Shown here piece by piece: positions 3,299 through 18,287 of a DNA stretch of 32,000 nt. Both the position numbers and the translations under genes were made by a program. The stretch is from Candidatus Brocadia sp. (GTDB lineage Bacteria; Planctomycetota; Brocadiia; Brocadiales; Brocadiaceae). The stretch is taken from assembly GCA_021650915.1 (NCBI GenBank), contig CP091279.1:720001-752000 (forward strand), given 5' to 3'. Position 1 is the stretch's first letter. Each line of letters opens with the position of its first letter. The notes under the pieces are model-generated. The model was not told the DNA's origin. It saw only the letters and a program-made list of their open reading frames with translations, and ran no database searches.

Positions 3299-5259
3299 GT
3301 CGCCAGATACTTTGGACAACGTGACAAAGTATCCTTTTAAACCATACGGCTTTCCCGTAGTTAGCGACCCCATAATGTTGCTCTGGAGCAGAGAAAAGTA
3401 AACTATCATGCCTTTGCACGTGCCTTAAGAAATTCTCTTTCAAATGAGAGTAACCCCATCTTAAAGAATCGGTGTACCGGGAAACGTTTGTTGTCAGTTT
3501 TCCATTTTCTCGAAAACTTGAAACTTCTCAGTCTCATGCGTACCCAGCAGTCTAACGAACGATATACCGTTTGTACATTGCCCAGCCGAAAATAGTTGAC
3601 ATGTCCCCTTATGACAGGATTTAATGTATCAATGACGGCTTGCAGGTTGACGCCTTGTGTGCGTTTGGTGATGTCCCTGACGGCGTCCTTGAGTTTGTCC
3701 AGGGATTTCATGCTTATACCCTTGTTCTTGCCCATGAAATTATATCCAAGAAACCGGAAGCCTCGTTTGAAGTTGGTGAGCCTGGTTTTATCCTCGCGCA
3801 GCTTCATTTCAAGTTTCCCTTCAATGATTTCTTTGACGTACTGAAGGGCGGCAGGGAGTTCTTCTTTTGTTTTAGTCATGACAACGAAGTCATCGGCATA
3901 GCGGACAAATTTATATCCTGCCTTTTCAAGCTCCTTGTCGATGATGTCACCGATAAGGTTTGCAAGCAAGGGAGATATGACGCCTCCTTGCGGAGTGCCT
4001 TGATTTGTCTCATGCACGATGCCGTTCTCCATGACCCCTGCCTTGAGCATGTTCTCGATACTGTTCAAAACCCATCCGTCAGCGATTTTCTCACGCAAGG
4101 AGTTCATGATAAGCTTGTGAGGTATGGTGTCATAGAACGCCTTTATATCGGCGTCCAAAATGTTCCGATACCCTTGCTGCTTATACTGTTCAATCCGTTT
4201 GATAGCATCATGACAGCATCTGTTTGGACGAAATCCAAAGCTGTTATCTGAGAATTCTTTCTCGAATATTGGCTCTATGATTTGTCTGAACGCCTGCTGT
4301 ACTACCCTGTCCTTGACAATGGGAATGCCAAGAGGTCTCTTGTCATGCCTGCCTTTGGGAATGTAGCCCCTTAAGACGGGCGCAGGGTTGTATATGGCGG
4401 TTTTCAGTTCCCTGTGAATAGCTTGTAGATTATTCTCAAGGTCACTTTCAAACTGCTTAATACTTACCCTGTCGAGACCAGCCTTGCCTTTATTCTTCTT
4501 TACGTGCCCAAAAGCCGCATAAAGGTTTCTCAGACTGAATACCTTGTCTCTTAAAGAATGATACTTAAGCATCTCCCGATATGTTCCTTTTGATTGATTC
4601 CGGATAATAGACTTGTCAATCGTGTTTCCTGAGTCGAGATTCCTCCTGACAGAGGCAAAACAAGAGAGGCTCTTGCTACTACTTGCCCATGCAAAGAGTC
4701 TCTTTTCTCATGGAACGTATTCAATCTACCACCTTCATCAACTCCACCACGGTTATGCCCCTTCATTCCTGGTACACACCAGAAACTATTATGAGCACTG
4801 CTGACGACTTCAAAGACAGACCTGTGAGAGCCAGTCGTCCGTCACCATCTCATACAGCTTGGATTTCGGATTTCCCTTATACCTCGCTGTTAGGGAATTT
4901 CTTCCCAAGACGTAAGTCCTCCCCCGGTCATATGGATTACCCCTTTTCCCTTCGTGATGTATGTTCAAACGCATTATCCAGAGATGTTTTCACCAGGTCT
5001 TTTTTTTGACATCTCCAACAGGGACATTGTCAGTGCTTTACTGAGAAAGGGCAGTTGGCACGAACTAACACGCCATACTCATACACCCCAAAAGGTCGTC
5101 TGTACCTCGTACTCCGTCATACCCCTCACGGGAATACGCTATCCTTCTACGCATACGGATTGCTCCTCTGTATACGCATAGGTACAAACTTCTCTACGAG
5201 GATTTAGGCTCGCAGAGGTGATATTTTCAACCACTTAGGTATCCCATACTTCAAGGCAC
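3299..5259 (-). mobile_element. group II intron 1 (5' end fairly well placed, 3' end provisional)
   Basis: Contains the RT/maturase ORF. The 5' end on the minus strand reads GUGCCUUGAAG... and matches the 5' ends of the other intron copies. A short domain-V-like hairpin lies at 3340-3362 and a 9-bp hairpin at 3306-3333 downstream of the ORF. The 3' boundary is guessed from the terminal ...GGCGAC. Confidence 0.65.
3406..4572 (-). CDS. group II intron reverse transcriptase/maturase, no endonuclease domain
   Basis: 388 aa. RT blocks are present: RPLGIPIVKDRVVQQA, FGFRPNRCCHDA, PQGGVISPLLANL, and the catalytic YADDFVV. A maturase X-like tail follows (RGHVNYFRLGN). Confidence 0.9.
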   Translation of the reverse strand: MLKYHSLRDKVFSLRNLYAAFGHVKKNKGKAGLDRVSIKQFESDLENNLQAIHRELKTAIYNPAPVLRGYIPKGRHDKRPLGIPIVKDRVVQQAFRQIIEPIFEKEFSDNSFGFRPNRCCHDAIKRIEQYKQQGYRNILDADIKAFYDTIPHKLIMNSLREKIADGWVLNSIENMLKAGVMENGIVHETNQGTPQGGVISPLLANLIGDIIDKELEKAGYKFVRYADDFVVMTKTKEELPAALQYVKEIIEGKLEMKLREDKTRLTNFKRGFRFLGYNFMGKNKGISMKSLDKLKDAVRDITKRTQGVNLQAVIDTLNPVIRGHVNYFRLGNVQTVYRSLDCWVRMRLRSFKFSRKWKTDNKRFPVHRFFKMGLLSFEREFLKARAKA

Positions 5260-5261
5260 GC

Positions 5262-5326
5262 CCTTCTCCAATATTGAAGCGCTAAACGGACAGCTTAATG
5301 TGTGTTCTATTATGAGACGATTAATA
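5262..5326. repeat. left arm of a perfect 65-bp inverted repeat
   Basis: The reverse complement of 5262-5326 is identical to 6190-6254 (checked base by base). The arm ends 2 nt from the intron 1 5' end. Confidence 0.9.
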
Positions 5327-5372: not shown

Positions 5373-6189
5373 GGTTCTTCTCCCAATTAGTCAATAAGAA
5401 TTGAGAAGAAAATCCTTTAAATCATTGAAAAGAGTGGACATTTGGTGTTTCCTATAGATAGATATATACCGTTATAGAAACTATTTACAGGAGACCAGCA
5501 ATGTCCCCATTAAGTATATTACCATATTTTCCTTTTCAGCGGGTAAGAATTACGAAGCAAACTGTTTTTCCTGATGCTGAGATATCTCAGCTTACTGCCG
5601 TGCCCGATGAACGATTTCGCCCAATATGTCATGCGTGTGGCAGCAAAGCACAGCGCATTTACCGCCATGACAAACGATCTTTGCGGGATCTGAATCCTGG
5701 TTCAGTTCGCGTATGGATACATTGTTCGTATCGTAAGATAGCCTGTGAGCCATGCAATCGAATCGTAGTTGAAGACTTGGGTTTTTTTCAACCCTACAGT
5801 CGTGTTACGCATCGTTTAGCAGCGTATATTCACGAATTGTGTAAAGTGTTAGCCGTAACCGAAGTTGCAAAACATTTTGGAATTAACTGGAAAACCGTAA
5901 AAACCATCGATACGTTTTTTCTGGAACGACAATACGCGCAGACAGATTATCAGAATCTTCGCATACTGGCGGTAGACGAAATCTCTGTTAAGAAGGGACA
6001 GCGCTATTTGACCGTTGTTCTGGACTATCTGAGTGGCCGCGTAGTCTGGGTGGGAAAGGAAAGAACAAAAGAAACCCTGGGAACCTTCTTTGCGGGTATG
6101 ACAGAGGAACAAAGGCAGGCGCTTGAGGCCATTGCCATGGATATGTGGGATCCTTATATTCATGCAGTAAAAAAGCACGTGCCTCATGT
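5373..6189 (+). mobile_element. ISL3-family insertion sequence, 3'-truncated
   Basis: The candidate left end GGTTCTTCTCC resembles ISL3-family termini (GGCTCTTC...). The transposase reading frame loses homology exactly at 6190, where the 65-bp repeat arm begins. Confidence 0.65.
5501..6189 (+). pseudogene. ISL3-family transposase, N-terminal approx. 230 aa only
   Basis: Zinc-finger-like CHACG...CEPCN and the ILAVDEISVKKGQRYLTVV and MDMWDPYIHAVKKHVP blocks are typical of IS204/IS1001/IS1165-type transposases. The remainder of the tracked ORF (to 6370) is unrelated read-through. Confidence 0.8.
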
Positions 6190-6254
6190 TATTAATCGTC
6201 TCATAATAGAACACACATTAAGCTGTCCGTTTAGCGCTTCAATATTGGAGAAGG
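6190..6254. repeat. right arm of the perfect 65-bp inverted repeat; part of a approx. 105-bp palindromic unit (6191-6295)
   Basis: Identical to the reverse complement of 5262-5326. Its outer end attaatcgtctcataat also pairs with aattatgagacccttaat at 6278-6295. Confidence 0.85.
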
Positions 6255-6293
6255 AAAGCATACGACGAATCAATACAATTATGAGACCCTTAA

Positions 6294-7592
6294 TATGTTC
6301 TCCACTTGTGTCGTCTCTCAGTCCTTCGCAAACCCTTCAAGCACAAAGCAATAGAGCGTCTATTCGATGATAAGTCAAAATATGTGCAGTTCAGGGATGA
6401 AATGGTAGATCGTTTTCTAATGGAACAGCACAAAAATTGGTTCAGTTTGCACCCAATTGTCCGCGAGATCGGTTTGCAGAAGTTAGCACTGTCTCCTGCG
6501 GATCTTCAACAAGCGCATAGTAGTGTTGCACCTTACTACACGCGTCACTTTGAGGCGAAACAGATCGTGGGTTGGGGAGCTTTAGGTGGTCACTTTGTCG
6601 AAGCACGCTATCATTTAACAAAAGCGGAGAAGGCAGAAGATTTAAGGGATATAGCTTCTCGATTTCAAAGTTATATATTTTCTACGTTGAGTGCGAGTTC
6701 TCCCATCCCCCATAACGCTGAGGAATTAGATGAACGTATCGCAGTTCTTTCTGCCATCCTTGAGTCGCCCGGTCCGAAAAGTCTAGAATATCACCTTGCC
6801 CGCTTGTTTTTGGCACGCAATCAGCGCAATGACCTCCGAAGAGGTCTACACCATGCCCACCGAGCAAAATCCAAAAGTGACAATGTGCAATCTTGGCTAT
6901 TATGCAGTGAAATACTGTCCAAGATGGGAAAGCACGAAGATGCAATAGAGGTACTGAAGCAAGGCATCAACCAGATACCTCCAAACAAAGCTCTGGTCGA
7001 TTTATATGATCGATGTGCTCGATTATTGACTCAATCTGGGCGATGCAATGAAGCAACTTGGACTCTGAATCGAGGTATTGATCGCATACCTCCTGATAAG
7101 GCTCTTGTCATATTGTATGACAACCTTGCCAGATTGTTAGCTCAAATGCAACGGTATAACGAAGCGATTACGATACTGAAGCAAGGCATTGACCGTATTC
7201 CGCCTGACAAAGCACTTGCCGTTTTGTACATTAGCTGTTGTGAGTTGCTTGTTCAGAAGGAAAGGTATGAAGAATCGCTTGCTATATTGAAACAAGGTGT
7301 CGCCTGCGTTCCTCCCAGTAAAGCCGCTGTCGATGTGTATTACCGTTACGGAGAGTTGTTAGCACAAAGAGGGCAATACTCAGATGCAATTGCCGTTCTG
7401 AAGCAGGGTATCGACCGTATTCCTCCCAATAAAGGGGTTTCGCTTATCTATGCTTTTTGTAGTGAGTTGCTGTTTGAAGGTGGTCAGCAGGAAGATGTGA
7501 ATGCCTTATTGAAGGAAGGCATTGATCGTGTTCCTCCTGATAAAGGAGTTGTGTCGATATATTTGAATTTTTGTAACACTTTAGTTCTTTGA
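6294..7592 (+). pseudogene. 5'-truncated STAND-NTPase-type C-terminal region with TPR-like repeats; 3' end also disrupted by an IS
   Basis: The frame opens right after the palindromic unit and has no credible start. A winged-helix-like segment (FSLHPIVREIGLQKL) is followed by helical repeats. The last repeat is cut by the IS TIR at 7573. Confidence 0.55.
6940..7572 (+). repeat. tandem 111-bp (37-aa) coding repeats, approx. 5.7 units
   Basis: The unit LKQGIDRIPPDKALxxLYxxxxxLLxQxxRYxEAIxx recurs at a 111-nt period (for example 6961, 7075, 7186). Confidence 0.8.
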
Positions 7593-8828
7593 AAAATTAA
7601 CAAGCGATTTTGCAAGCAAACCCAGAAGTCGTTTTCACCATAAGGGCATTTTTTGCGCTTGCCAGAAGATTTTCCACTGGATTGATTCTTTGTAATTCAG
7701 CAGAACGAAGCAGAGACATGAGGATGGCCTGTGTCTTAGCGCCATCCTCAGAGCGGTTCTGCTGTGAGACCTTTCTGGTCAATACTGGCTTTCGCATCTG
7801 TTGCTCAGCATGGTTATTATAGGGACTGACATCCTCATGTTCCAGGAACGTAAAGAGTTCCTTCGTCTGGCCATGATACCGATAGGTATTGCCCCGTTTT
7901 GCACTGCCTTTGGTTTTTCCTACACGGAGCCAATTAGCTGCCTGATAGCAAGTGCCTTGAAATCGCGCGGTATCAACAAAGGTCTCCGCCAAATACACGG
8001 GATGTCCGTAGACAGCTTCCCAGTCATCTGACAAACGCTTGAGGGCAAGGGATAATACCTTGGATGCAAGGTGTTTGACCGTAACCCAGGGGGGAATGAG
8101 GAATCGCACGTTACTGGCAATTAAATGCAAGTGGGTGCGTTTGGTGGTCTCATCCCATCCGATGAAACGGTCACGGTCTTTGACCTTCCATGCTGCGCTT
8201 GCCCATCCAAGACAGGCAACGACCTGATTGCCGATATGTACGATGTGCCTGACGTGTTCGCCAACAAGCCGGGGACATCCGAGGTAGTGGTAGTGATAGA
8301 GGAGATAACCCCAGAGGTAACTCTCTTGAGGGTCTTTTACCACCTGGATCGTCGGGATTTCATACCCGGTGATAGTGCCTCCCAGTGTGCTTTTGACAAA
8401 AAGGGGTATCTGATCAAATATCTTAGGTTTCAGATTGTTTTTTGGTCGTATGCGGCCTGGAAGCGCTACCAGGCCCTGTTCTTCCAATCGCAGAAGGAGG
8501 TCTCGTGCCGCGTATTCTTTCAGCTTGCCATTGGGCTGCACCCAGTTCCAACTTTTGCAAAGTTCACGGGAAATATAACTCCGCCCTTTGAGAAAATAAC
8601 TATCAATGAGCGCCTTGATAAAGGCTATATCGTCTGTATGCAGTTTCCGTGAACGGTATTGGAATAGTATAGGCTTCATAAACAGGTTCCTTTTCTCTGA
8701 AGCCTTTTATACCACAAAGGGAAAACTGACGCCAGCTTTTTTTGTATCTTAACGCCCTGATGGTTAAAACGCCTTCTGGGTTTGCTTATAAAATCGCTTG
8801 TTAATTTTTCAAAGAACTAAAGTGTTAC
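7573..8828 (-). mobile_element. IS66-like element bounded by 56-bp terminal inverted repeats
   Basis: 7573-7628 matches the reverse complement of 8773-8828 at 54 of 56 positions. The termini begin GTAA, as in IS66-family ends. No matching direct repeat flanks it (gaattttt versus ctgcaaat). Confidence 0.7.
7597..8679 (-). CDS. DUF4338-like protein fused in frame to an IS66-type transposase C-terminal segment
   Basis: The N-terminal approx. 275 aa (SRELCKSWNWVQPNGKLKEYAARDLLLRLEEQG ... CYQAANWLRVGKTKG) resemble DUF4338. The last approx. 80 aa (NNHAEQQMRKPVLTRKVSQQNRSEDGAKTQAILMSLLRSAELQRINP) resemble the IS66 C-terminal motif. The ORF ends inside the TIR. Confidence 0.6.
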   Translation of the reverse strand: MKPILFQYRSRKLHTDDIAFIKALIDSYFLKGRSYISRELCKSWNWVQPNGKLKEYAARDLLLRLEEQGLVALPGRIRPKNNLKPKIFDQIPLFVKSTLGGTITGYEIPTIQVVKDPQESYLWGYLLYHYHYLGCPRLVGEHVRHIVHIGNQVVACLGWASAAWKVKDRDRFIGWDETTKRTHLHLIASNVRFLIPPWVTVKHLASKVLSLALKRLSDDWEAVYGHPVYLAETFVDTARFQGTCYQAANWLRVGKTKGSAKRGNTYRYHGQTKELFTFLEHEDVSPYNNHAEQQMRKPVLTRKVSQQNRSEDGAKTQAILMSLLRSAELQRINPVENLLASAKNALMVKTTSGFACKIAC

Positions 8829-8843: not shown

Positions 8844-8872
8844 TTGACAATTATTATCACATATGGCAATAT
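8844..8872 (+). promoter_or_regulatory. sigma70-type promoter candidate for the riboswitch transcript
   Basis: TTGACA (8844-8849), a 17-nt spacer, then CAATAT (8867-8872). Confidence 0.4.
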
Positions 8873-8914
8873 GCCCAGCCAAACGCCGTAATAGCCAGGG
8901 CTACAGAGAAAATA

Positions 8915-9030
8915 TTACGATAAGGGCAAACCCGGAGTGATCCGGGGACGCAAAGTAACAGGGTCTTTTGCAGGGGCGTACTCGTCTGCGTGCACCGCAC
9001 AGACAGATGACATGCGCCCTCTATAATCCC
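8915..9030 (+). promoter_or_regulatory. c-di-GMP-I (GEMM-I) riboswitch aptamer
   Basis: GGCAAACC-CGGA-GUGA-UCCG-GGGACGCAAAG-UAACAGGGUC (8924-8966) matches the two conserved GEMM-I blocks, which flank a hairpin capped by a GNRA tetraloop. A second long hairpin follows (AGGGGCG...CGCCCU). Confidence 0.7.
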
Positions 9031-9038
9031 AAAAAGAC

Positions 9039-9094
9039 AGCCTTACTGCCGAAGATGTTCAAAATGAATATTTTTACAGTAAGGCTTTTTTATT
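9039..9094 (+). terminator. intrinsic terminator / riboswitch expression platform
   Basis: 10-bp stem agccttactg (9039-9048) pairs with cagtaaggct (9077-9086), followed by TTTTTaTTT. The 28-nt loop is long for a simple terminator. Confidence 0.5.
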
Positions 9095-9133
9095 TGCAAA
9101 AATTGAAGGAAGCCGCAGGCTTCAGAGGAAAAT

Positions 9134-9154
9134 GGTGGGCACTGCCCACCCTAC
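9134..9154 (-). repeat. REP-like GTAG-leader hairpin, inverted orientation
   Basis: GGTGGGC act GCCCACC followed by CTAC. On the minus strand this reads GTAG plus hairpin. Confidence 0.5.
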
Positions 9155-9161
9155 CCCTGGC

Positions 9162-9187
9162 TGGTTCAATCGTCCGCGATTGAACCA
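9162..9187. repeat. perfect hairpin (11-bp stem, 4-nt loop) with TGGTTCA arm
   Basis: tggttcaatcg tccg cgattgaacca. Confidence 0.6.
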
Positions 9188-9251
9188 AGATGTTTGGCAA
9201 GATTTCACATTTATTGCACGGGTTCATGCCCAGGCGTGCCATGCGAAACGT

Positions 9252-9278
9252 CTGGTTCAGTCTGCAAGACTGAACCAG
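9252..9278. repeat. perfect hairpin (12-bp stem, 3-nt loop) with CTGGTTCA arm
   Basis: ctggttcagtct gca agactgaaccag. Shares the CTGGTTCA arm start with the hairpin at 9162. Confidence 0.6.
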
Positions 9279-9344
9279 CTTAGAAAATTAGAGTTATAGT
9301 AGACATTCTATGTCAAGCTCTTTTTTTCTTTTAGAAAAAAATGA

Positions 9345-9541
9345 GCCGGGTAGGGTAGGCATCGCCTACCACGTATTTCGAATGCATGCGGGTAATTTAT
9401 ACGGATGTGGAATGAATGAAATGGTTGTGAACGATCTTGGCATGGAACGGATTTTGGTAACGGCGGGTTGTGCTTGCATTACTTCACATTTTGCCGGGTT
9501 TGATCTGGCAGGCGGCGCCATGCCCTACGTAAAAATTGTAT
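9345..9541 (+). repeat. A-type REPIN-like repeat, copy A1
   Basis: gccggGTAGG-GTAGGCatcGCCTAC hairpin, then a approx. 150-nt conserved core, then GGCAGGCggcGCCaTGCC-CTAC and gtaaaaattgta. Confidence 0.85.
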
Positions 9542-9675
9542 TCACAAATTCAAATTCTAACAAAAAGGCACGGGGTCAGGTCTTTATTCTTGCTGTTTGT
9601 GTTAAAAACCTGGCAGATTGGGGTGGGTCGTGGGGTCGCGCCTCGATTTGTGAATATTGCGTTGAAGTGTCTTAA

Positions 9676-9900
9676 TTACAAAAGTTGAAATACTGGCACT
9701 TGAATAGTTTTATATGAGCGATGCCGTTCGATGGCAATTTGGAGTTTGTCAACGGTTTCTGGAGAAAAATATTCTTCATTACAGTTTTCACATACCTCTG
9801 CTGGGACATTTTCCACGGCAACCAATTCCCCATGATACCATTGAGTGTACGTAATATATTTCTGGGTGGTTTTCCCCTGACATACTGAACATGTATTCAT
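9676..9900 (-). CDS. YgiT-type zinc-finger protein (MqsA-like antitoxin N-domain type)
   Basis: 74 aa with CxxC...CxxC (CSVCQG ... VPAEVCENCNEEYF). Lies immediately downstream of a DUF4258-type gene, a recurrent TA pairing. Confidence 0.75.
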   Translation of the reverse strand: MNTCSVCQGKTTQKYITYTQWYHGELVAVENVPAEVCENCNEEYFSPETVDKLQIAIERHRSYKTIQVPVFQLL

Positions 9901-9903
9901 AAT

Positions 9904-10206
9904 CTATTTTCTCCTTATTCTATTATCAATCCATTGCTCCGGGTCTGGTTCATATACAGTTACAATGCTTATAATTGGCAAAAGGGCTATTTGAACGTGT
10001 AGTGCTCTTCCCATAGCTGTTTTTCCATATACAAGGCAACTCGGTCCGTATTTATCGGAGGGGTAATTTTCAATTATTTCACCGGTTAAAATAGCTTGTT
10101 CAATCTCTTCGCCTGTTATATGACGGTTTATTCTTTGTTCCGTACCGTGTTTTGTATAACGAAATTTATTTTCAACAAGAGCTTTACGGATGATAGCAAT
10201 ATTCAC
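9904..10206 (-). CDS. DUF4258-family toxin candidate (start reassigned to GTG)
   Basis: The conserved part starts near NIAIIRKALVENKFRYTKHGTEQ. The tracked ATG at 10356 would add 50 aa that overlap an intron fragment. The GTG at 10204-10206 sits just downstream of a strong promoter. Confidence 0.65.
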   Translation of the reverse strand: MNIAIIRKALVENKFRYTKHGTEQRINRHITGEEIEQAILTGEIIENYPSDKYGPSCLVYGKTAMGRALHVQIALLPIISIVTVYEPDPEQWIDNRIRRK

Positions 10207-10213
10207 AAGATTA

Positions 10214-10242
10214 ATATAACATGGCGTTTTTCTCTGTGTCAA
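10214..10242 (-). promoter_or_regulatory. sigma70-type promoter of the DUF4258/YgiT operon
   Basis: Minus strand: TTGACA (10242-10237), a 17-nt spacer, then TTATAT (10219-10214). The start codon lies approx. 8 nt downstream, so the mRNA may be leaderless. Confidence 0.5.
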
Positions 10243-10291
10243 TGGAGAAAATAAAAGAGAGGAAGTCAGAGGGTCACCCTTAAATGTTAGC

Positions 10292-10520
10292 GTGCCCAGG
10301 AAATGGCACTGCTTTCTAGGGGGTGAAAGTCCCGACATGGTAAAAGCAGGAGCCATGTAGCTTGGATGGCAGGGGGTGATGGAAACATTACCTTCTGAAG
10401 CCCATCGACAAAGTCGGCGTAAGGCCGGTGTGCGAATATCCGGGTCGTAACTTACGTGAACGTAGATGTAGCCTCGTGAAAGTCAAGAACCACTGGCCGG
10501 GCTGGGGCTTGGTGTCACCC
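10292..10520 (+). mobile_element. group II intron 5' fragment (domain I part only)
   Basis: GUGCCCAGGAAAUGGCAC...GGGGGUGAAAGUCCC parallels the 5' end of intron 2 (GCGCCAAGGAAAGUUAGGCAC...GGGGUGAAAGUCCC). No RT ORF or domain V follows. Confidence 0.5.
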
Positions 10521-10555
10521 ATTAGAAGACTTTTGTCAATCGAAAAAGATTTTCT

Positions 10556-10673
10556 GTAGTTGAGTGGGGTGGATTAAGCGACAGCGAATCCACCAATCCG
10601 TCTTTTGTTGGGATATTATTGGTGGATTCGGCGCTAAAAGGCAAGCGCCTTAATCCACCCTACAAAAATTGTA
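10556..10673 (+). repeat. B-type REPIN-like repeat, copy B1
   Basis: GTAG leader, then GGTGGATTaagcgacagcgAATCCACC, a spacer, then GGTGGATTcggcgctaaaaggcaagcgccttAATCCACC-CTAC and aaaaattgta. Confidence 0.85.
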
Positions 10674-10864
10674 GCTCTATAGGTATCGCCTACCACGCAT
10701 TTCAAATGCATGCGGGAAATTTGTGCGGATGTGGAATGAATGAAATGGTTGTGAACGATCTTGACATGGAACGGATTTTGGTAATGGCGGGTTGCGCTTG
10801 CATTACCTCACATGTTACCGGGTTTGATCTGGCAGGCGGCGCCATGCCCTACGTAAAAATTGTA
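10671..10864 (+). repeat. A-type repeat, copy A2 (left hairpin degenerate)
   Basis: Roughly 90 percent identical to A1 across the core and right end (by eye). Confidence 0.85.
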
Positions 10865-10881
10865 TGGATACACAACTTGTA

Positions 10882-11016
10882 GCCGGGTAGGGTAGATTGC
10901 AACGGTACGAATGATTGGTGTTGGGTTTCACTCACGTTTTACCCAACCTACACAATTCGGTATTAAAGCCGGGTAAGATTGGGTTGAATGAAATGAAACC
11001 CAACGGATTTTTCAAT
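10882..11016 (+). repeat. C-type REPIN-like repeats, cluster C1
   Basis: GTTGGGTttcactcacgttttACCCAAC-CTAC, then gccggGTAAGaTTGGGTTgaatgaaatgaAACCCAAC. Confidence 0.8.
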
Positions 11017-11067
11017 GTTTATGAAGAGTTGGTGTTGGATTTTCATATGCCTTACCTGAAGTACCGA

Positions 11068-11490
11068 CTACAAAACGATAATTCCCTCTTTCTCAGCGGC
11101 TTGATTCAATTTTTCATCATTACTTGAAAAATACACCCGTGGCCCGATTTTGTGCTTTAGATTCATAGCTGATGCCAGGTGGATGGAATCAAAACCTCTG
11201 AGGAGGTGCTTTTCAGCAATATCACCTGCTGACCTTATCAATCCGTCGGTAACCTCAATGAGAAAATAGCTTTCCCAATCTCTATTGAAATCCTCTACAA
11301 TTTTTCGGAGTACTTTAGCAGAAAAACCGTCGTCTCTTTGTTTCCTTGCAAAGGCAGACCTTGCTTCTGCATATGCTACTTTTGAAGTTGATAGGACCGT
11401 TGCCTTGTGGACTATTTCTTGTATCGTATCAGAACCGATCTCATCTATATACAATTTAACCAGGTCGCTCGTATCGATGTAAACGATCAT
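11068..11490 (-). CDS. vapC: PIN-domain toxin (VapC-type)
   Basis: 140 aa with MIVYIDTSDLVKLY (acidic D near the N-terminus), GFDSIHLA and SSNDEKL acidic positions. Overlaps the upstream antitoxin gene by 4 nt. Confidence 0.8.
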   Translation of the reverse strand: MIVYIDTSDLVKLYIDEIGSDTIQEIVHKATVLSTSKVAYAEARSAFARKQRDDGFSAKVLRKIVEDFNRDWESYFLIEVTDGLIRSAGDIAEKHLLRGFDSIHLASAMNLKHKIGPRVYFSSNDEKLNQAAEKEGIIVL

Positions 11491-11762
11491 CTTCTATCTT
11501 CTATGACTATCTCAGAAACGGTTTTTCCCTTAACTTTAACGGAATGTATACTTCCCATTGGTTTGCCACCTTTCCATACAGCAAAACCCTCTTTAACCAG
11601 GGAAAGCAGTTTGGAATCCTCACCTACTCTCTCTACGGGAGTAATGGTGGCAATTATTTTCTCCCTTTCGGTAATTGCGATCTTTTCACCTTTCTTGATT
11701 TCCCGAAGATAATGACTCAATCTATTTTTTAATTCTTTTATGCCAACAGTAATCATGGACAC
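11487..11762 (-). CDS. Phd/YefM-type antitoxin
   Basis: 91 aa with N-terminal ITVGIKELKNRLSHYLREIKKGEKIAIT, typical of prevent-host-death antitoxins. Coupled to vapC. Confidence 0.75.
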   Translation of the reverse strand: MSMITVGIKELKNRLSHYLREIKKGEKIAITEREKIIATITPVERVGEDSKLLSLVKEGFAVWKGGKPMGSIHSVKVKGKTVSEIVIEDRR

Positions 11763-11792
11763 ATTGTAAAGTTAAGTAGCTACCTTTGTCAA
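11763..11792 (-). promoter_or_regulatory. promoter with embedded palindromic operator for the phd-vapC operon
   Basis: Minus strand: TTGACA (11792-11787), an 18-nt spacer, then TACAAT (11768-11763). The spacer contains the GTAGCTAC palindrome (11776-11783). The ATG follows almost immediately. Confidence 0.45.
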
Positions 11793-11854
11793 TAATAATT
11801 TAAAGCACAAAAGTAAGAATATTTTATCGGGGGGAGGCTGGGGGTCACACCTTG

Positions 11855-13808
11855 TCGCGCCAAGGAAAGTTAGGCACATTTTGCGGGGTGAAAGTCCCTG
11901 TCGGGTAAGGGATAGCCACCCACCCGTATCGAGTCTTGCGTCCAATGCGGAGCGTGTAAACGCGAACAAGAAGATTGGATGAGGCGTAGACAGAGAATTC
12001 TGTAGGCCGCAGGGGTGGTCACGCACCCTGAAGTGCTGGTACAGCTTCGAGATGACCTAACAAGCGGATGCCGAGGGGTTCAAGGTTTACCGAAGGCAAT
12101 ACAAGAACATCCGAAATGGCGAGGATGCGAAGATCCGCCGGAGTCTTCAGGCCGCGGCATGCAGAAACAGATGTGTCCAAGAACTTGGGAAGCCCCAATA
12201 GCTCCTGGAAGCAGAGCGGAACAGGCAGGCGGTGGAGTACGGTAAAAGGGAAAAAGCCGCTAGAAGCGATTGGGGTGTCTTATCAGGCATAGTACTCAGA
12301 GGTGGGGAAAGCCCGCTACAGGGGGAAGGACTTGACGGAAGTACGTAGCCCGCAAAGGAAACTTGAGCCGGACAATGCAGGGTCGGAAGAACTCAAGCAA
12401 ACCTCACTGCGGGGAATAGCAAACAAGGCGAAAGTCAACAAGCAACATCGGTTTCAGAATCTCAATAGGTGTCTGAATAAGTCACTGTTACGGGAGAGCT
12501 GGCGGGAGCTGAATAAGGATGCAGCCAGTGGCGTGGATAACGTTACAGCAGCAGAGTACGCAGAGCGCCTGGACAGCAACCTCCAAACATTGGCAGAGAG
12601 ACTGAAATCGAAGCGATACCGCGCCAAACTGGTGCGGCGCTGTTACATTCCTAAGGAAAACGGTAAAGAAAGACCCTTGGGCATACCAGCACTGGAAGAC
12701 AAGCTGGTGCAACTGGCCTGCACGAAATTGTTAACAGCAATATACGAGCAGGATTTTCTGGATTGTAGTCATGGGTACCGACCCAAACGCAGCGCGAAGG
12801 ATGCAGCAATAGTCCTGCGCAGGGAGTTACAAGGAGGGAGGTATGGCTACATCGTCGAGGCGGACATAAAAGGATTCTTCGATAATCTGGATCATGACTG
12901 GTTGCTGAAAATGCTGAGTCTTCGTATAGATGATCGGGCATTTCTGCACCTTATCAGCAAGTGGCTGAAAGCAGGAGTGCTTGATACCGATGGAACGGTG
13001 CTTCATCCGGAAAGTGGCTCTCCGCAAGGAGGAATTATCTCCCCGATCCTGGCGAATGTGTATCTGCACTACGCCCTGGATTTGTGGTTTCAGAAGGTGG
13101 TAAAAGCCCATTGTCGAGGTAAAGCGGAATTATGCCGCTATGCCGACGACTTTATCTGTGTGTTTCGTGATAAGCGAGATGCGGAAAGGTTTTATCAGGT
13201 GCTGCCAAAGCGGGTTGGAAAATTCTGCCTTCAGTTAGAGCAGAAGAAGACGCAGATTATGAGATTTAGTCGCTCTGATCCGCGCATGAAACAAGGGTTC
13301 AGCTTCCTGGGGTTTGAGTTTTACTGGAAGAAAGATCGTTGGGGGACACCACGAGTTATGTGCCGCACGTCCCGTAAGAAATTACAAGGGGCGTGTAGGA
13401 GGGTCAAGGAATGGATCAGGCAAAATCGGCATCTGCCAGGAAGTGAATTTTTCAAAGGATTAAACAGTCGGCTGAGAGGACACTACAATTATTATGGGAT
13501 AAAGTATAACTATCAATCGCTCAATCGCTTTTATAAATGGGCTATAGCATGTACCTTCAAATGGCTGAACAGGAGAGGCGGAAAGCGGAACAGTTATACA
13601 AAGGAGACGCTAGAGCGAATCCTGCGTCTCATAGGTATTGCAAGACCTCGAATTACGGAAGCCATTCGTTGAAAAATGTTTGTTTGTTGATGACGTCATG
13701 TACCGTGGAAGCGAGTACGACCGAGGAACCGGATGCGGGAAAACTGCACGTCCGGGACTGTGCGGGGGGTGCTGGGTAACTTACATTCCTACCGCGGAAT
13801 TTGTGATT
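11855..13808 (+). mobile_element. group II intron 2 (boundaries within about 15 nt)
   Basis: 5' GCGCCAAGGAAAG...GGGGUGAAAGUCCC, then the RT ORF. Domain V lies at approx. 13727-13758 (CCGGAUGCGGGAAAACUGCACGUCCGG). A domain-VI-like helix has a bulged A at 13791. Confidence 0.75.
12302..13672 (+). CDS. group II intron reverse transcriptase/maturase, no endonuclease domain
   Basis: 456 aa with RPLGIPALEDKLVQ, HGYRPKRSAKDA, PQGGIISPILANV, YADDFICVF and an X-domain-like RGHYNYYG. Start is a GTG in the track; the true start is uncertain. Confidence 0.9.
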   Translation: MGKARYRGKDLTEVRSPQRKLEPDNAGSEELKQTSLRGIANKAKVNKQHRFQNLNRCLNKSLLRESWRELNKDAASGVDNVTAAEYAERLDSNLQTLAERLKSKRYRAKLVRRCYIPKENGKERPLGIPALEDKLVQLACTKLLTAIYEQDFLDCSHGYRPKRSAKDAAIVLRRELQGGRYGYIVEADIKGFFDNLDHDWLLKMLSLRIDDRAFLHLISKWLKAGVLDTDGTVLHPESGSPQGGIISPILANVYLHYALDLWFQKVVKAHCRGKAELCRYADDFICVFRDKRDAERFYQVLPKRVGKFCLQLEQKKTQIMRFSRSDPRMKQGFSFLGFEFYWKKDRWGTPRVMCRTSRKKLQGACRRVKEWIRQNRHLPGSEFFKGLNSRLRGHYNYYGIKYNYQSLNRFYKWAIACTFKWLNRRGGKRNSYTKETLERILRLIGIARPRITEAIR

Positions 13809-13813
13809 ATTAA

Positions 13814-14005
13814 GCCGGGTAGCCGGGTAGGGTAGGCATCGCCTACCACGCATTTCGAATGCATGCGGGTAATTTATACGGATGTGGAACGGTTCAAATG
13901 AATGGGAACGACTCTGACATTGAACGGTTTCTTGCAATGGCGGGTTGTGCTTGCATTACTTCACATTTTGCCGGGTTTGATCTGGCAGGCGGTGCCATGC
14001 CCTAC
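13814..14005 (+). repeat. A-type repeat, copy A3 (divergent 48-nt internal segment)
   Basis: Same ends as A1. The right end runs directly into a RAYT-like start codon at 14037. Confidence 0.85.
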
Positions 14006-14036
14006 GTAAGATTTGTATGGATGGAAATATACAAAC

Positions 14037-14119
14037 ATGCCTAACTATCGGAGGGTGCGGATACCGGGGATAACCTATTTCTTTACGGTTGTTACCTACA
14101 AATTGAGCGCTCACTCAGC
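14037..14119 (+). pseudogene. 5' relic of a REP-associated tyrosine transposase (RAYT / IS200-like Y1 transposase) gene
   Basis: Encodes MPNYRRVRIPGITYFFTVVTYK, the characteristic N-terminus of RAYT/TnpA(REP) proteins. Homology stops after approx. 22 codons. Confidence 0.6.
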
Positions 14120-14132
14120 CGTGGAATTCTGG

Positions 14133-16119
14133 GTAGAGTAGGGAACTGGCTATCTATAGTTTAGGTTGGCCTATCTGTTTCTGCCCCTTTCGTCTGGCAG
14201 TGCCTCAGTAGCCTCACCATGCTATTTCGCCAGTCCTCCCTCATCAAACCGTGCTTGCGGTTTTCCCGCACACGGCTTTCCGATGCCCTTCACCATAAGG
14301 CATGCGCTATCTCCATACCGCTGTGGTCGGCACTTTGTAAAGACCATATCTCTCATATAACATGCTGTTTGTGTATCGCTTAAGCCCTGTCTTCCTGTCT
14401 CTGATTTTATGACGTCTGTACAGGTGTATCCGAAGCCGGAATTGAGCGTGTTCTCTTACTTGCTTGAGGACTCTGCTGCAATTGCGATAATGGAAGTATC
14501 CTGTCCATCCTATCAGTGCCGTATTCACCTCTTTGACTATCGCTTCAAACGGTAGAGGGGACCTGTTCCTGCTGGTAAGTGCCGTAATGTGGTCTTTTAT
14601 CTTCTTGAGAGATTTCTTCGACGGCTGAACATGGGGATAACTCTTCCCCGTGCGCCAATTCTTCCTCTTTTGAAGTTCAAACCCAAGAAAGGTAAATCCC
14701 TCTTTCATGGCGTCTACTACACGGCTCTTTGCCTCGTTTAACGTCAGTCCCAGTTTGTCCAGCACCCGCTTTGTTATCGCCATTGGCTGTTCAGTTCCTT
14801 GCCTGCACAGTACGACAAAGTCATCGGCAAAGCGTACTAATCTGGCTCCGAGTTTCTTCTCCAGTCGATGTCTCTCCCATATCCTGTCCAGGAGGTGCAG
14901 GTAGAGATTGGCTAGTAACGGTGAGATTACTCCTCCTTGAGGTGTGCCTTTCCGGTTCCCTTTACCTCCGCCGATGTTCCTTTGTTTTCCGTCTCTGCCT
15001 TTTTCTATGACCGGAGCCTTGAGCCACGTCTTTATCAGGTGCAGTATCTCACCGTCACTGATGCGCTCTGCTACCACAGCCATAAGCTTGGCATGGGGGA
15101 TGGTGTCAAAGTATTTGGACAGGTCGGCGTCTATGATTTCGGTATATCCCTTGTTGAGGGTATATGCTACGTCATCTACGGCATCGTGGGCAGATTTCTT
15201 CGGCCTGAACCCGTATGAACATTCGCAGAAATCGGCTTCAAAAATGGGTTCTATGACCAGTTTTACGGCCATCTGCGCTACCCTGTCACGGATGGTGGGA
15301 ATGCCTAACGGGCGTTCCGTTCCGTCCGTCTTGGGTATCATTACTCGTTTTACAGGGCTTGCTTGATAGGTCTTGCTCCTGAGTGCTTCTTGCAGTTCCG
15401 CCAGAAAGGCGGATACCCCTTCTCTTTCCTCGATGGCCTCGAAGGTTACGCCGTCTATCCCGGCGCTCCCTTTGTTGGCACGGACAAGGGTGTAAGCATG
15501 ACTGAGGATGTCTGCCCGGAATACCTTGTCATAGAGGGCGTAGAAGCGGTAGGTTGGTTCTTGCTTGGCCTTTCGGTATAGCTTCCTCTGTAGTATCCTG
15601 ATCTTTTCCGGGGTTGTTAGCATTTCTGCAATCTCCCTTTTCCTCTACTCTTCGGTTGCATGAACAAAGCAGGGTTCCTTTCCTCGAACAGGGTTTTGTT
15701 GTCCCTTGTCCTCAAACGGTATCATGAACCCCTCCGACTCCCTATACAGCCCGCTGTGATTTCGTTTCCTTATACAGAGCGGTTTATGCCCCTCAAACAT
15801 TACTGCATAGGGTCTCCAGCACTGGTCTGTTTATCTTCCACTGCATGCCGCCCCTGCTACCCCGGAAGATATTACAGACTCCTTCCGTTGCCTGAGTCTG
15901 CAATCTTCGGCCTTCCCCACGTGTCCACGGGGTCGGCATCTTCAATTTGTATTGACGAGGCTACTTGTAGGTTCGCTTGCGCTGCGGCCTGCGGTTTTGC
16001 CAATTGGGAACTTACGACCCCTGATTGCTCAGACGCCGCTCCCTTGAACTACCGGGGTGAACGGATAATTCCCCGGACGGGACTTTAACCCGTAAGAATA
16101 AACAAATGTTACTGCGTAC
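14133..16119 (-). mobile_element. group II intron 3, boundaries defined by an intact paralogous target site
   Basis: A 1987-bp insertion relative to the uninterrupted paralog at 16748-16793. The minus strand starts GUACGCAG and ends CUCUAC. Canonical domain V lies at 14246-14278 (AAGCCGUGUGCGGGAAAACCGCAAGCACGGUUU). Confidence 0.85.
14307..15623 (-). CDS. group II intron reverse transcriptase/maturase, no endonuclease domain
   Basis: 438 aa with RPLGIPTIRDRVAQMA, YGFRPKKSAHDA, PQGGVISPLLANLYLH, FADDFVVLC and GWTGYFHYRN. Confidence 0.9.
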   Translation of the reverse strand: MLTTPEKIRILQRKLYRKAKQEPTYRFYALYDKVFRADILSHAYTLVRANKGSAGIDGVTFEAIEEREGVSAFLAELQEALRSKTYQASPVKRVMIPKTDGTERPLGIPTIRDRVAQMAVKLVIEPIFEADFCECSYGFRPKKSAHDAVDDVAYTLNKGYTEIIDADLSKYFDTIPHAKLMAVVAERISDGEILHLIKTWLKAPVIEKGRDGKQRNIGGGKGNRKGTPQGGVISPLLANLYLHLLDRIWERHRLEKKLGARLVRFADDFVVLCRQGTEQPMAITKRVLDKLGLTLNEAKSRVVDAMKEGFTFLGFELQKRKNWRTGKSYPHVQPSKKSLKKIKDHITALTSRNRSPLPFEAIVKEVNTALIGWTGYFHYRNCSRVLKQVREHAQFRLRIHLYRRHKIRDRKTGLKRYTNSMLYERYGLYKVPTTAVWR

Positions 16120-16165
16120 GGACAGCATACTTAATTATTGACATTATTTTTAACGTAACACTTTA

Positions 16166-16210
16166 GCCGGGTAGGTTGGGTTGAATGAAATGAAACCCAA
16201 CGAATTTTTC
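16166..16210 (+). repeat. C-type repeat, single hairpin copy C2
   Basis: gccggGTAGGTTGGGTTgaatgaaatgaAACCCAACgaatttttc. Confidence 0.8.
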
Positions 16211-16221
16211 TTTATGCCAAG

Positions 16222-16494
16222 CTAACGGTAAATATCCTTACGATGGCCTATTCGTATAATGTGAACTACTTTTTGAGGAGAATGTACTTCGTAGATGATG
16301 CGGTAATCCCCACTTCGTAAGGAATAGCAACCTTGTTTTTTACCTTTGAGATGTTTACCTGAATAGGGGTTGAATGAGAGGGAGTCAATAAGCTTAACGA
16401 TGCGTTTGGTAACGGTAGGATTTGCATACTGAAGTTTTTTTATATCACGGCTTGCTTTTGGGTCAACCTTAATTTCAAATTTGCTTGAGCTCAC
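16222..16494 (-). CDS. RelE/ParE-family toxin
   Basis: 90 aa with LRSGDYRIIYEV...VVHIIRIGHRKDIY, the classic RelE/ParE C-terminal signature. Confidence 0.85.
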   Translation of the reverse strand: MSSSKFEIKVDPKASRDIKKLQYANPTVTKRIVKLIDSLSFNPYSGKHLKGKKQGCYSLRSGDYRIIYEVHSPQKVVHIIRIGHRKDIYR

Positions 16495-16684
16495 GCTTCA
16501 AGGTTTCCCATGATATGGACTTGCCTTTACGGAAACGTTCCCTGGCCTGAGTAATTTCACGGTCCAATTTTGGAGTTGGTGTATAGCCAGCTTCTTCAAG
16601 CAGGGTAATATACTCTTCTACAGGAATTAAAACCATTGGTTTGTCAATGGTAAGGGGGTGCATTAAAATTGCTTTTTGAGCCAT
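16475..16684 (-). CDS. antitoxin partner of the RelE/ParE toxin
   Basis: 69 aa. Overlaps the toxin start by 20 nt. Small acidic/basic protein in the antitoxin position; the family was not recognised with certainty. Confidence 0.6.
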   Translation of the reverse strand: MAQKAILMHPLTIDKPMVLIPVEEYITLLEEAGYTPTPKLDREITQARERFRKGKSISWETLKRELKQI

Positions 16685-16747
16685 GGTTTACCTCACAATG
16701 GGATGATATAATTTAACAAACAAATATATAGACTGTCAAGGTAAAAT

Positions 16748-16793
16748 GCGGAATTCCGGGGATACCATACTTAATTATCGACATTATTTTTAG
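16748..16793 (+). repeat. D-type repeat: intact (intron-less) paralog of the intron 3 insertion site
   Basis: gcggaattccggggataccatacttaattatcgacattattttta matches the joined flanks of intron 3 (14119-14132 plus 16120-16152) at about 41 of 47 positions. Confidence 0.8.
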
Positions 16794-16794
16794 A

Positions 16795-16909
16795 GTCTGG
16801 TAGGGTGGATTAAGCGACAGCGAATCCATCAATCCATCTTTTGTTGGGATATTATTGGTGGATTCGGCGCTAAAAGGCAAGCGCCTTAATCCACCCTACA
16901 AAAATTGTA
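16795..16909 (+). repeat. B-type repeat, copy B2
   Basis: gtctgGTAGGGTGGATT...AATCCACCCTACaaaaattgta. Near-identical to B1 and B4. Confidence 0.85.
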
Positions 16910-16911
16910 AC

Positions 16912-17052
16912 CCGATAGGCATCGCCTACCACGTATTTCGAATGCATATTGTGAGCGATCTTGACATGGAACGGATTTTGGTGATGACGGGTTGTGCTTG
17001 CATTACTTTACATTTTGCCGGGTTTGATCTGGCAGGCGGTGCCTTGCTCTAC
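16912..17052 (+). repeat. A-type repeat, copy A4 (36-nt internal deletion, degenerate right end)
   Basis: Aligns to A7 except for loss of gcgggaaatttgtgcggatgcggaatgaatgaaatg. The right end reads gccttgctCTAC. Confidence 0.8.
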
Positions 17053-17103
17053 AAAAATATTTCATTGAGATATCAGTTTATTATATTCAGCATGGGAACC
17101 AAT

Positions 17104-17319
17104 TCAAGACCATACAACAGTATTGCCTTTGTCTAGTCCTGGCGCTCGATATTTTCGGCTTACTCGCACAGACCACAATTTGCGAATCCTTTTGAATTGC
17201 AAGGACGGATGTGCCGAATCTGTTTTGAGAAGTTGGAAATTCTTATCTGCAAGTACTTGAACTTCCTTCGGAAGTTGCTGGTAATAACGCCAAAATTCAG
17301 GAGTCGTGTAATGATTCAA
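17104..17319 (-). CDS. RelE/ParE-superfamily toxin with an in-frame TGA (homology continues to 17062)
   Basis: FWRYYQQLPKEVQVLADKNFQLLKTDSAHPSLQFKRIRKLWSVRV is typical of this toxin type. After VVWS-TGA the frame continues IGSHAEYNKLISQ-stop, which is the expected conserved C-terminus. Confidence 0.65.
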   Translation of the reverse strand: MNHYTTPEFWRYYQQLPKEVQVLADKNFQLLKTDSAHPSLQFKRIRKLWSVRVSRKYRAPGLDKGNTVVWS

Positions 17320-17513
17320 AGTGGCTTACACCGTCCGGATTGAAAGCTTTCCTCCGCCTCTTTGATTATTTTGTCCAGCCGCCCAGCTTCTATATCATTT
17401 TCGATTTGCTTGTCCCACGTTTGTGCTTGATATGCCTCAAACCAGGCAGTAAACTGAGACAATTCCTCAGATGTAAGTCGTGTAATGGCTAATTCAATTT
17501 CTTTAATACTCAT
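17316..17513 (-). CDS. antitoxin (addiction-module component) partnered with the preceding toxin
   Basis: 65 aa: MSIKEIELAITRLTSEELSQFTAWFEAYQAQTWDKQIENDIEAGRLDKI. This is a pattern often seen upstream of this toxin type. 4-nt overlap with the toxin start. Confidence 0.7.
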   Translation of the reverse strand: MSIKEIELAITRLTSEELSQFTAWFEAYQAQTWDKQIENDIEAGRLDKIIKEAEESFQSGRCKPL

Positions 17514-17674
17514 ATATTTATTTTTCTGTGGAAAAGTTCATATATTATAACAAGGTATTACTCTGTTATTAATACAGAAACACTGCTCATAATCAAGTGC
17601 AAAAGAGAAAGGGCAAGAAAGGACAAGGGGTCAAAGATAAATCTGCTTCAACTCTTCTGATAATCTGAGAAATC

Positions 17675-17768
17675 CAGGCAGGTTGGGTTGGATGAAACGA
17701 AACCCAACGAATTTTTCAACGTTACGCATGATTGGTGTTGGGTTTCACTCACGTTTTACCCAACCTAC
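17675..17768 (+). repeat. C-type REPIN (two inverted hairpins), copy C3
   Basis: cagGTTGGGTTggatgaaacgaAACCCAAC, a spacer, then GTTGGGTttcactcacgttttACCCAAC-CTAC. Confidence 0.8.
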
Positions 17769-17778
17769 ATAATTTACA

Positions 17779-17880
17779 GCCGTGTAGCTGGGTAGGGTAG
17801 GCATCGTCCTACCACACATTTTGGATGCACGTGGATAATTTTTGCGGGATAATGTTTCTGACGTTGAACTGATTTTATAT
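17779..17880 (+). repeat. A-type repeat, copy A5 (degenerate, left half only)
   Basis: gccgtGTAGctggGTAGGGTAGGCatcgtCCTACC, followed by a decayed core. Confidence 0.6.
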
Positions 17881-18246: not shown

Positions 18247-18287
18247 GTCTGGTAGAGGGGATTAAGCGACAGCGAATCCGTCAATTC
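18247..18287 (+). repeat. B-type repeat, partial copy B3
   Basis: gtctgGTAGaGGGGATTaagcgacagcgAATCCgtcaattc. Confidence 0.7.

Follow-up and report, generated by a model that had tools for sequence, protein, structure and literature searches.

In Bacillus thuringiensis, the class I ON riboswitch for c-di-GMP (cyclic dimeric guanosine monophosphate) named Bc2 lies upstream of the collagen adhesion protein gene cap, and it was shown experimentally that its terminator/anti-terminator platform de-represses this large surface adhesin at high c-di-GMP (PMC4933901). The merRNA of Bdellovibrio bacteriovorus is a stand-alone c-di-GMP riboswitch RNA that is massively expressed, has no conserved downstream open reading frame (ORF) across strains, and was proposed to act as a sponge (PMC3627812). 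Furthermore, a survey attributed transposase-adjacent antisense riboswitches to insertions into loci that had formerly been canonically regulated (PMC9943018). Here we analysed a c-di-GMP-I riboswitch that has no gene behind it in a 32,000-nucleotide (nt) stretch of Candidatus Brocadia sp. (assembly GCA_021650915.1, contig CP091279.1, positions 720,001 to 752,000 of the forward strand). The whole of this stretch is hereafter called the window, and coordinates given without a locus name are those of the window. We consider it likely that the element is a canonical c-di-GMP-I riboswitch whose giant surface-protein gene was lost when about 9.5 kb of a hypervariable island was rearranged.

When compared with these systems, the element shares with the Rfam family of the class (RF01051) the two-helix architecture, a first hairpin capped by a GNRA loop, the conserved core and a transcription-terminator platform; it differs in that the Brocadia copies are without the canonical 11-nt receptor (CUAAG/UAUG) columns and carry a 64-nt hairpin in P2, and in that the window copy lies outside any 5′ untranslated region (UTR). 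The layout that we infer for an orthologous Brocadia locus, L016, resembles that of Bc2, a class I aptamer with a terminator platform before a surface-protein gene. However, Brocadia belongs to the Planctomycetota, the target is a 3042-amino-acid (aa) RHS-repeat protein behind a 420-650-nt leader of palindromic repeats, ON behaviour is only predicted, and the window copy is without a target. The likeness to merRNA lies in a c-di-GMP-I aptamer with no ORF behind it, whereas a near-identical Brocadia strain does have the ORF. As in the surveyed antisense cases (PMC9943018), the genes that the riboswitch faces are convergent, and its neighbourhood was altered by mobile or variable DNA, but in the window a target gene would have been lost and no transposase gene was inserted downstream.

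The sister locus and the missing giant gene

Contig WBZR01002968.1, from a sister Ca. Brocadia metagenome-assembled genome (MAG), was found by way of the antitoxin gene adjacent to the riboswitch region. The far end of its first part (L001) is 97.6% identical to 9177-9302 and immediately precedes a 3042-aa gene that runs in the direction of the window plus strand, and a further part of the same contig, L016, was retrieved by a metagenome scan with the leader hairpin. The window is colinear with L016 to 9302 and again from 9344, and the giant gene is missing between these points:

L016 10689-14187, window 9284-5784: 99.0% identity; TPR gene, insertion sequence (IS) at the same site, promoter, and riboswitch with an identical Rfam score.
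L016 10509-10653, window 9302-9158: 97.9% identity; second tandem unit of the B repeat.
L016, about 50 nt after the B unit, no window match: hairpin GGTGGGCATCGCCCACC, GGAG and ATG.
L016 1332-10460, no window match: the 3042-aa ORF.
L016 about 967-1331, matched in the window only by other copies (10612-10869; 13829-14121): 90-93% identity; repeat of type D3 plus a further A repeat (A#2).
L016 1-966, window 10309-9344: 97.6% identity; A repeat A#1 (window 9344-9541) and toxin-antitoxin module.

In L016, the giant ORF has a ribosome-binding site (RBS) and a signal-peptide-like N-terminus and starts, in window orientation, 460 nt after the aptamer; no promoter-like site was found on the gene strand between the terminator and the ATG. 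Pfam analysis placed Laminin_G_3, PKD, FG-GAP, PA14, He_PIG, Big_9 and PASTA domains in the protein, the C-terminal half of which is made of RHS repeats. When the giant protein was compared with the whole window by tblastn, no match was found, and the homologues recovered with its N-terminal 400 aa were all at most 700 aa long and at most 62% identical. The original prediction had described an orphan riboswitch and had pointed to relatives as the place where its usual gene could be recognized. In L016, which is 99% identical through the IS, riboswitch and leader, the riboswitch indeed precedes a gene for a secreted RHS-repeat protein; in the window, the aptamer scores above the Rfam gathering score and there is no intact syntenic gene downstream.

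A similar arrangement was seen in a second MAG (L019, WBZY01001159.1), where a 78%-identical riboswitch (61 bits) and three B units precede a 3103-aa gene, which in turn is followed by A repeats and toxin-antitoxin modules; its product and the L016 protein are 87-89% identical. In L015 and L017, further contigs of the latter MAG, B units stand directly before genes with the N-terminus MIRNWY(I/V)RENVKYVS, and the N-terminus of the giant gene family reads MIRNWYIRENVKYVS... Given that the order of riboswitch, leader and giant gene is found in two lineages, the simplest reading is that this layout is ancestral, and the window strain would then have lost about 9.5 kb and, with it, one B unit. The event was presumably a loss and not a gain, in a hypervariable island that consists of repeats, toxin-antitoxin modules and group II introns. 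Taken together, the alignments support the view that the riboswitch is a recent relic of strain-level gene loss. Two explanations that had been offered at the outset, displacement of the regulated gene and a decaying relic, are favoured by the synteny with L016 and by the absence of the gene between 9302 and 9344; a third, an autonomous c-di-GMP small RNA (sRNA) or sponge, found no support and is unnecessary. With the anomaly so removed, the orphan should not count as evidence for trans-acting riboswitch RNAs. In islands of fast turnover a riboswitch can outlast its target, and this calls for caution when regulons are predicted from single genomes.

Downstream of the terminator, the window contains the following features:

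9109-9123 and 9134-9150: two short G+C-rich leader hairpins, also in L016, terminator-like on the minus strand.
9158-9283, plus strand: B repeat, a palindromic leader unit of about 125 nt.
9284-9302, plus strand: final leader stretch in common with L016, by pairwise alignment against L001/L016.
9303-9343: 41-nt junction, to which none of the retrieved loci has a close match.
9344-9541: A repeat, the first of six copies in the window, at which homology to L016 resumes.

The rearrangement breakpoint, 9302/9303, corresponds to a site about 50 nt upstream of the giant-gene start in L016. In other Brocadia contigs, what stands before this A repeat bears a weak resemblance to the junction (TGTCAAGC...AAAAAAT...AGCC in common), and the event could equally be a deletion or a recombinational replacement within a mosaic island. 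The breakpoint falls at the 5′ edge of the L016 hairpin GGTGGGCATCGCCCACC, just before the giant-gene RBS, and this hairpin, taken with its preceding bases, agrees at 18 of 20 positions with the first A-repeat hairpin, GGTAGGCATCGCCTACC; the resemblance hints that such hairpins may mark recombination-prone boundaries.

The B unit folds as one long hairpin (z = -5.2) and matched no Rfam family. Between the terminator and the start codon of the giant gene, blastn counted one tandem B copy in L015, two each in L016 and L017, and three in L019. B-repeat sites were located at L016 10509-10815, L019 13666-14170, L017 1-309 and L018 3889-4551; in L018, the three copies are in reverse orientation and have no gene behind them. 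The hairpin-forming ends of the repeat read GGTTCAATCG...CGATTGAACC and GGTTCAGTCT...AGACTGAACC and are terminator-like on the opposite strand.

Between 9095 and 9675 the plus strand holds just two ORFs, of 55 aa (9132-9299) and 121 aa (9310-9675), and these lie on the B and A repeats, respectively. The A repeat is non-coding: among 13 copies, variability at the three codon positions was 0.081/0.084/0.095, with no bias in either frame, and one copy has indels of 1 and 2 nt, which are not multiples of three. The statement of the original prediction that no credible ORF follows was therefore upheld, as was its statement that the next genes (9676-9900 and 9904-10356) are on the opposite strand. 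In the window, the riboswitch is thus not in the 5′ UTR of any same-strand gene, whereas it is so placed in the orthologues L016 and L019.

Several points weigh against the favoured explanation. In look-ups of the junction-adjacent ORFs and of the IS ORF, no independent assembly with the same junction was found, and a look-up of the radical SAM protein for a second copy of the junction yielded just a 2.8-kb contig. The junction is also without a counterpart elsewhere, and the exact event is not reconstructable. Moreover, the element is fully intact, which fits a recent loss but also a retained function. Finally, the predicted ON polarity has a single basis, the mutually exclusive pairing set out below, and c-di-GMP is the presumptive ligand.

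Aptamer, terminator and predicted switching

The Rfam covariance model for c-di-GMP-I (RF01051) matched 8915-9053 on the plus strand over its full length (model positions 1-87) with 58.0 bits (gathering score 35; E-value in the 32-kb window, 4.8e-09). The element and its upstream neighbour consist of the following parts:

7573-8828, minus strand: mobile element of 1256 bp with 78-nt terminal inverted repeats at 7573-7650 and 8751-8828.
8844-8872, plus strand: sigma-70-type promoter, with the -35 box TTGACA at 8844-8849, a 17-nt spacer and the -10 box CAATAT at 8867-8872.
8926/8951 and 8927/8950, plus strand: outer pairs of the aptamer.
8931-8946, plus strand: P1a hairpin with a GUGA (GNRA) loop at 8937-8940.
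8954-8965 paired with 9036-9047, plus strand: P2.
8969-9032, plus strand: extra hairpin of 64 nt in distal P2, a lineage-specific insertion that folds separately.
9039-9095, plus strand: intrinsic terminator, with stems 9039-9048/9077-9086 and 9051-9061/9065-9075 and U6 at 9086-9091.

The claim of a core closely matching GEMM-I was borne out by a score well above the gathering score and by the presence of all the quoted motifs, namely GGCAAACC, the GNRA hairpin and then GGGGACGCAAAG; the core reads GGCAAAC...GACGCAAAG...CUGCC. Family comparisons were based on ten closely related Brocadia copies, the window copy included, which is a minimum for the family. Across these, the cells of the aptamer pairs were 98.3% paired, compared with 28-46% in controls with slid partners, and one pair shows a compensatory GC to UA change, with covariation limited by the close relatedness of the copies. 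By covariance score, motifs and pairing, the window element is a genuine c-di-GMP-I riboswitch, an addition to a known class and not a new kind of RNA.

With regard to the ligand, canonical G, A and C nucleotides occupy the columns aligned to G20, A47 and C92 (G 8925, A 8952 and CC 9049-9050), where the numbering of the Vc2 structure was put onto the Rfam columns by assumption and with the help of the position at which the RF03167 consensus departs. In its binding-site nucleotides the element agrees with the canonical c-di-GMP class, and specificity for c-di-GMP would be expected. Cyclic GMP-AMP or a variant ligand was rejected, the aligned positions being canonical in the window copy. The consensus tetraloop-receptor columns (UAAg / uAu) are gapped in all Brocadia copies, though the GUGA (GNRA) loop is present. 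Lack of the 11-nt tetraloop-receptor columns is a known variation inside the c-di-GMP-I class, and the receptor is not needed for membership.

Membership in the variant class c-di-GMP-I-GGC (RF03167) was likewise rejected. The window copy scored 58.0 bits, just under the gathering score of 59, and lacks the variant-defining nucleotide: the RF03167 consensus reads GACGCGAAG, with G at the equivalent of A47, and every Brocadia copy, including that of the window, keeps GACGCAAAG. The paralogues L012, L014 and L015 exceed the RF03167 gathering score at 61-63 bits, for several of them slightly above their RF01051 scores, because the outer stem and short P2 resemble those of the variant and not because of the variant-defining nucleotide.

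A promoter-like match, CAGACA-N16-TATAAT (10/12), was noted at 9000-9027 on the plus strand, inside the P2 insertion, and also in L016. It is probably due to chance; if active, it would give transcripts without the 5′ half of the aptamer.

The promoter that had been read as TTGACA-N17-CAATAT is present at its site, with an extended -10 TG at 8864-8865, and recurs before the orthologues L016 and L019 and the paralogue L013, and L011b has TTGACG-N17-GATAAT. The -10 box fits the consensus at only 3/6 positions, which places it below the threshold of a simple promoter scan and explains why it went unlisted; conservation among the aligned copies is stronger evidence for the putative promoter than its fit to the consensus. 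The mobile element upstream was said to be IS66-like and to end 15 nt before the -35 box. The distance is correct (the right inverted repeat ends at 8828), but the label holds only loosely: the single ORF, of 360 aa (7597-8679, minus strand), matches in Pfam DruA (Druantia-type, PF14236) and, over about 60 aa, the C-terminus of the IS66 transposase. The pair of inverted repeats (I1) is 92% complementary. In L016 the element is inserted at an identical position; with L019, homology ends near 8825. A fusion of DruA with an IS66 tail is an unusual chimera for an insertion sequence.

The predicted terminator, a stem followed by a U-tract, was also recovered, as an interrupted stem-loop of 10 + 11 bp (9039-9086, -23.7 kcal/mol) followed by U6; the region 8870-9100 folds at -81.6 kcal/mol, with z = -5.7 against shuffles. 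Across the ten copies, the cells of the terminator pairs were 91.3% paired versus 40-56% in slid controls, with CG to UA changes and many wobble-preserving changes. The 5′ arm of the terminator (9039-9048) overlaps the 3′ strand of P2 (9041-9047), next to the CC aligned with C92. Because one strand is common to both, P2 and the terminator are mutually exclusive, and an A to G change in the shared strand of L011a keeps G-U pairing in both alternative helices. From this exclusive pairing it follows that the ligand would block termination, and the switch is predicted to be ON at high c-di-GMP. In the ligand-free calculation, the terminator fold comes to -69.8 kcal/mol and the fold in which the aptamer is enforced to -59.0 kcal/mol, a margin of about 11 kcal/mol in favour of the former. 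A more stable terminator fold without ligand is usual for such switches and is no proof of polarity. A G to A change at 9076, unique to the window, weakens the terminator by about 4 kcal/mol (-23.7, compared with -27.7 in L016), and it may be neutral or a first sign of decay.

In the intact locus, transcription would begin at the TTGACA-N17-CAATAT promoter. Without ligand, the terminator would arise as the strand GCCUUACUG pairs with CAGUAAGGC, releasing an RNA of about 210 nt; with c-di-GMP bound, the shared strand would be kept in P2, no terminator would form, and read-through would proceed over the leader of 420-650 nt into the giant gene. The window retains the promoter, the aptamer, the terminator and a single leader unit, and read-through there would reach only non-coding repeats.

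The Brocadia family and rival explanations

An exact-pattern scan with the first hairpin of the aptamer gave matches in Candidatus Brocadia MAGs only. Behind seven of the ten copies there is an exported-protein gene on the same strand, with the following targets:

L016, L019 and L015: giant RHS/LamG proteins.
L018: a 623-aa LamG protein.
L012: a secreted S8 subtilase with a fervidolysin-type prodomain.
L013: an NHL-repeat protein.
L014: a 139-aa signal-peptide protein, with a vWA-like protein and an ABC transporter encoded behind it.

The other three copies (window, L011a and L011b) adjoin mobile elements. In Ca. Brocadia sp. DTUAMX2 (JAJTXE010000002.1), L011a (L011 153-277) and L011b (1247-1388) are gene-less and lie 1.1 kb apart. 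Only about 10 nt separate the L011a aptamer from the end of a hicA-like gene, so that there is no room for a promoter, and a convergent PIN/antitoxin pair lies about 50 nt away; L011b has a promoter, and behind it come a transposase fragment in reverse orientation and then an assembly gap. The comparison shows that the family has been orphaned recurrently beside mobile DNA.

Aggregation and granulation are traits for which anaerobic ammonium-oxidizing (anammox) bacteria, Candidatus Brocadia among them, are valued. According to reviews, c-di-GMP has merely been correlated with the production of extracellular polymers in anammox sludge (PMC11224092). Near-identical riboswitches of predicted ON type before giant RHS/LamG, subtilase and other exported proteins offer a testable route from c-di-GMP to anammox aggregation and granulation.

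A further element, of about 220 nt, is found in the window at 20297-20519 and 26472-26708, as an inverted pair that flanks the cusA, intervening-sequence protein (IVP)-like and cusB genes. A 95.5%-identical copy at L018 1314-1540 ends exactly where a c-di-GMP-I riboswitch (L018 1538-1643) starts, and the element may be another mobile or promoter-carrying repeat tied to the riboswitch family.

It is very unlikely that the orphan copies, three of the ten, have been kept for a function, whether as c-di-GMP-gated antisense RNAs against convergent toxin-antitoxin modules or as small c-di-GMP-binding RNAs; were they so retained, the c-di-GMP level would be tied to toxin-antitoxin activity in anammox aggregates. 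In the antisense version, read-through at high c-di-GMP would yield RNA antisense to the convergent DUF4258/MqsA-like module, and the unit would be kept for this reason. The intact promoter, aptamer and terminator, the convergent next genes and the second Brocadia orphan (L011a) beside its convergent PIN/antitoxin pair all agree with such a role, and in the survey c-di-GMP riboswitches were the family most frequently in antisense orientation (PMC9943018). However, in L016 and L019 the giant gene is already faced by the same module in convergent orientation, so that the convergent geometry was inherited and not selected. Intactness says nothing about selection either, because the window is 99% identical to a locus with a cis-acting switch. 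In addition, hairpin-rich repeats fill the roughly 580 nt between terminator and toxin-antitoxin module, and the survey itself ascribes mobile-element-adjacent cases to random insertion (PMC9943018). We therefore regard antisense retention at the window locus as very unlikely.

Another way to account for the missing gene is that the assembly dropped it. Giant repeat-rich genes and interspersed repeats are hard to assemble, the tandem B copy number varies between assemblies, and no second assembly with the junction was found. Nevertheless, the sequence of the junction is unique, no repeat shared there would be long enough for a false join, and the window lies within a 4.05-Mb contig, presumably a closed genome, with flanks that are colinear on both sides. 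An assembly artefact is highly improbable on this evidence, and loss of the gene from the strain itself is preferred.

The terminated transcript of about 210 nt could also be imagined as an autonomous c-di-GMP-binding sRNA or sponge resembling merRNA. The unit of promoter, aptamer and terminator does stand alone, merRNA provides a precedent (PMC3627812), and three of the ten Brocadia copies are without a same-strand gene. On the other hand, the orthologous loci L016 and L019 carry a downstream gene of 3042-3103 aa, unlike merRNA; every orphan copy adjoins mobile DNA, which suggests accident; L011a has lost even its promoter region; and a single-copy RNA from an ordinary promoter is unlikely to buffer c-di-GMP. 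A trans-acting role is accordingly most improbable. Control of a small plus-strand ORF is scarcely credible: the 55-aa and 121-aa ORFs exist mechanically, but both are on repeats, the A repeat shows no third-position bias and has frame-breaking indels, no Shine-Dalgarno sequence lies upstream, and the 121-aa ORF and its 87-aa and 84-aa in-frame versions are not on record as called genes.

The surrounding island

Beyond the junction lies an island, at 9676-20250, of six two-gene toxin-antitoxin-like modules, all on the minus strand, with A repeats and group II introns between them:

9676-9900, minus strand: MqsA-like zinc-finger antitoxin (Pfam).
9904-10356, minus strand: DUF4258 toxin (Pfam); in L016, this module lies beyond the 3′ end of the giant gene.
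11068-11762, minus strand: PIN/Phd.
16222-16684, minus strand: ParE and a small partner.
17104-17513, minus strand: ParE-like protein and partner.
18380-18905, minus strand: DUF4160/DUF2442.
19299-19841, minus strand: DUF4258/DUF2283.

The A repeats (9344-9541, 10680-10873, 13821-14121, 16949-17073, 18948-19235 and 19855-20060) separate the reverse-strand modules here and in other Brocadia contigs. They are about 190 nt long (some about 280 nt), are 83-91% identical to one another, and have two ends that are able to pair. As a structured RNA, the repeat gave unremarkable single-sequence folds (z = -1.2 and -0.7), negligible covariation and no Rfam match. Integron attC sites were considered and rejected, given a length of about 190 nt, the lack of R′/R″ (GTTRRRY) boxes on either strand and the lack of an integrase in the window; the A repeat is probably similar to a miniature inverted-repeat transposable element. 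Other short repeat families (D3, D5-D7) are scattered in the island.

Four group II intron copies or fragments were seen in the 32 kb (3406-4572, minus strand; 10317-10455, plus strand; 11891-13800, plus strand; 14133-16086, minus strand), three of which carry reverse-transcriptase/maturase ORFs. The fragment at 10317-10455 is an isolated D1-D4 piece; it extends into the DUF4258 ORF at the annotated 5′ end and accompanies that module in other contigs. A coupling of c-di-GMP-I riboswitch and intron, an idea modelled on the c-di-GMP-II/group I ribozyme, was rejected: the nearest plus-strand fragment, this same one, is 1.2 kb away, lies past the reverse-strand toxin-antitoxin pair and occurs in other contexts too. 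The A repeat at 13821-14121 is placed between the 3′ ends of two convergent group II introns (window 13672-14307), which were recognized by a maturase ORF at 12302-13672 (plus strand) and a domain V-VI match at 14280-14133 (minus strand); the arrangement suggests that these introns home next to the A repeat.

On the other side of the riboswitch, a truncated transposase ORF of the ISL3 family (5501-6370) overlaps the start of the TPR-repeat gene (6306-7592); most of this ORF is enclosed by inverted repeats of 65 nt (5262-5326 and 6190-6254) that are perfect, with 100% complementarity. Further downstream, a gene for a 23S rRNA intervening-sequence protein (PF05635; 23799-24179, minus strand) is inserted between cusA and the cusB-like gene of a heavy-metal efflux operon.

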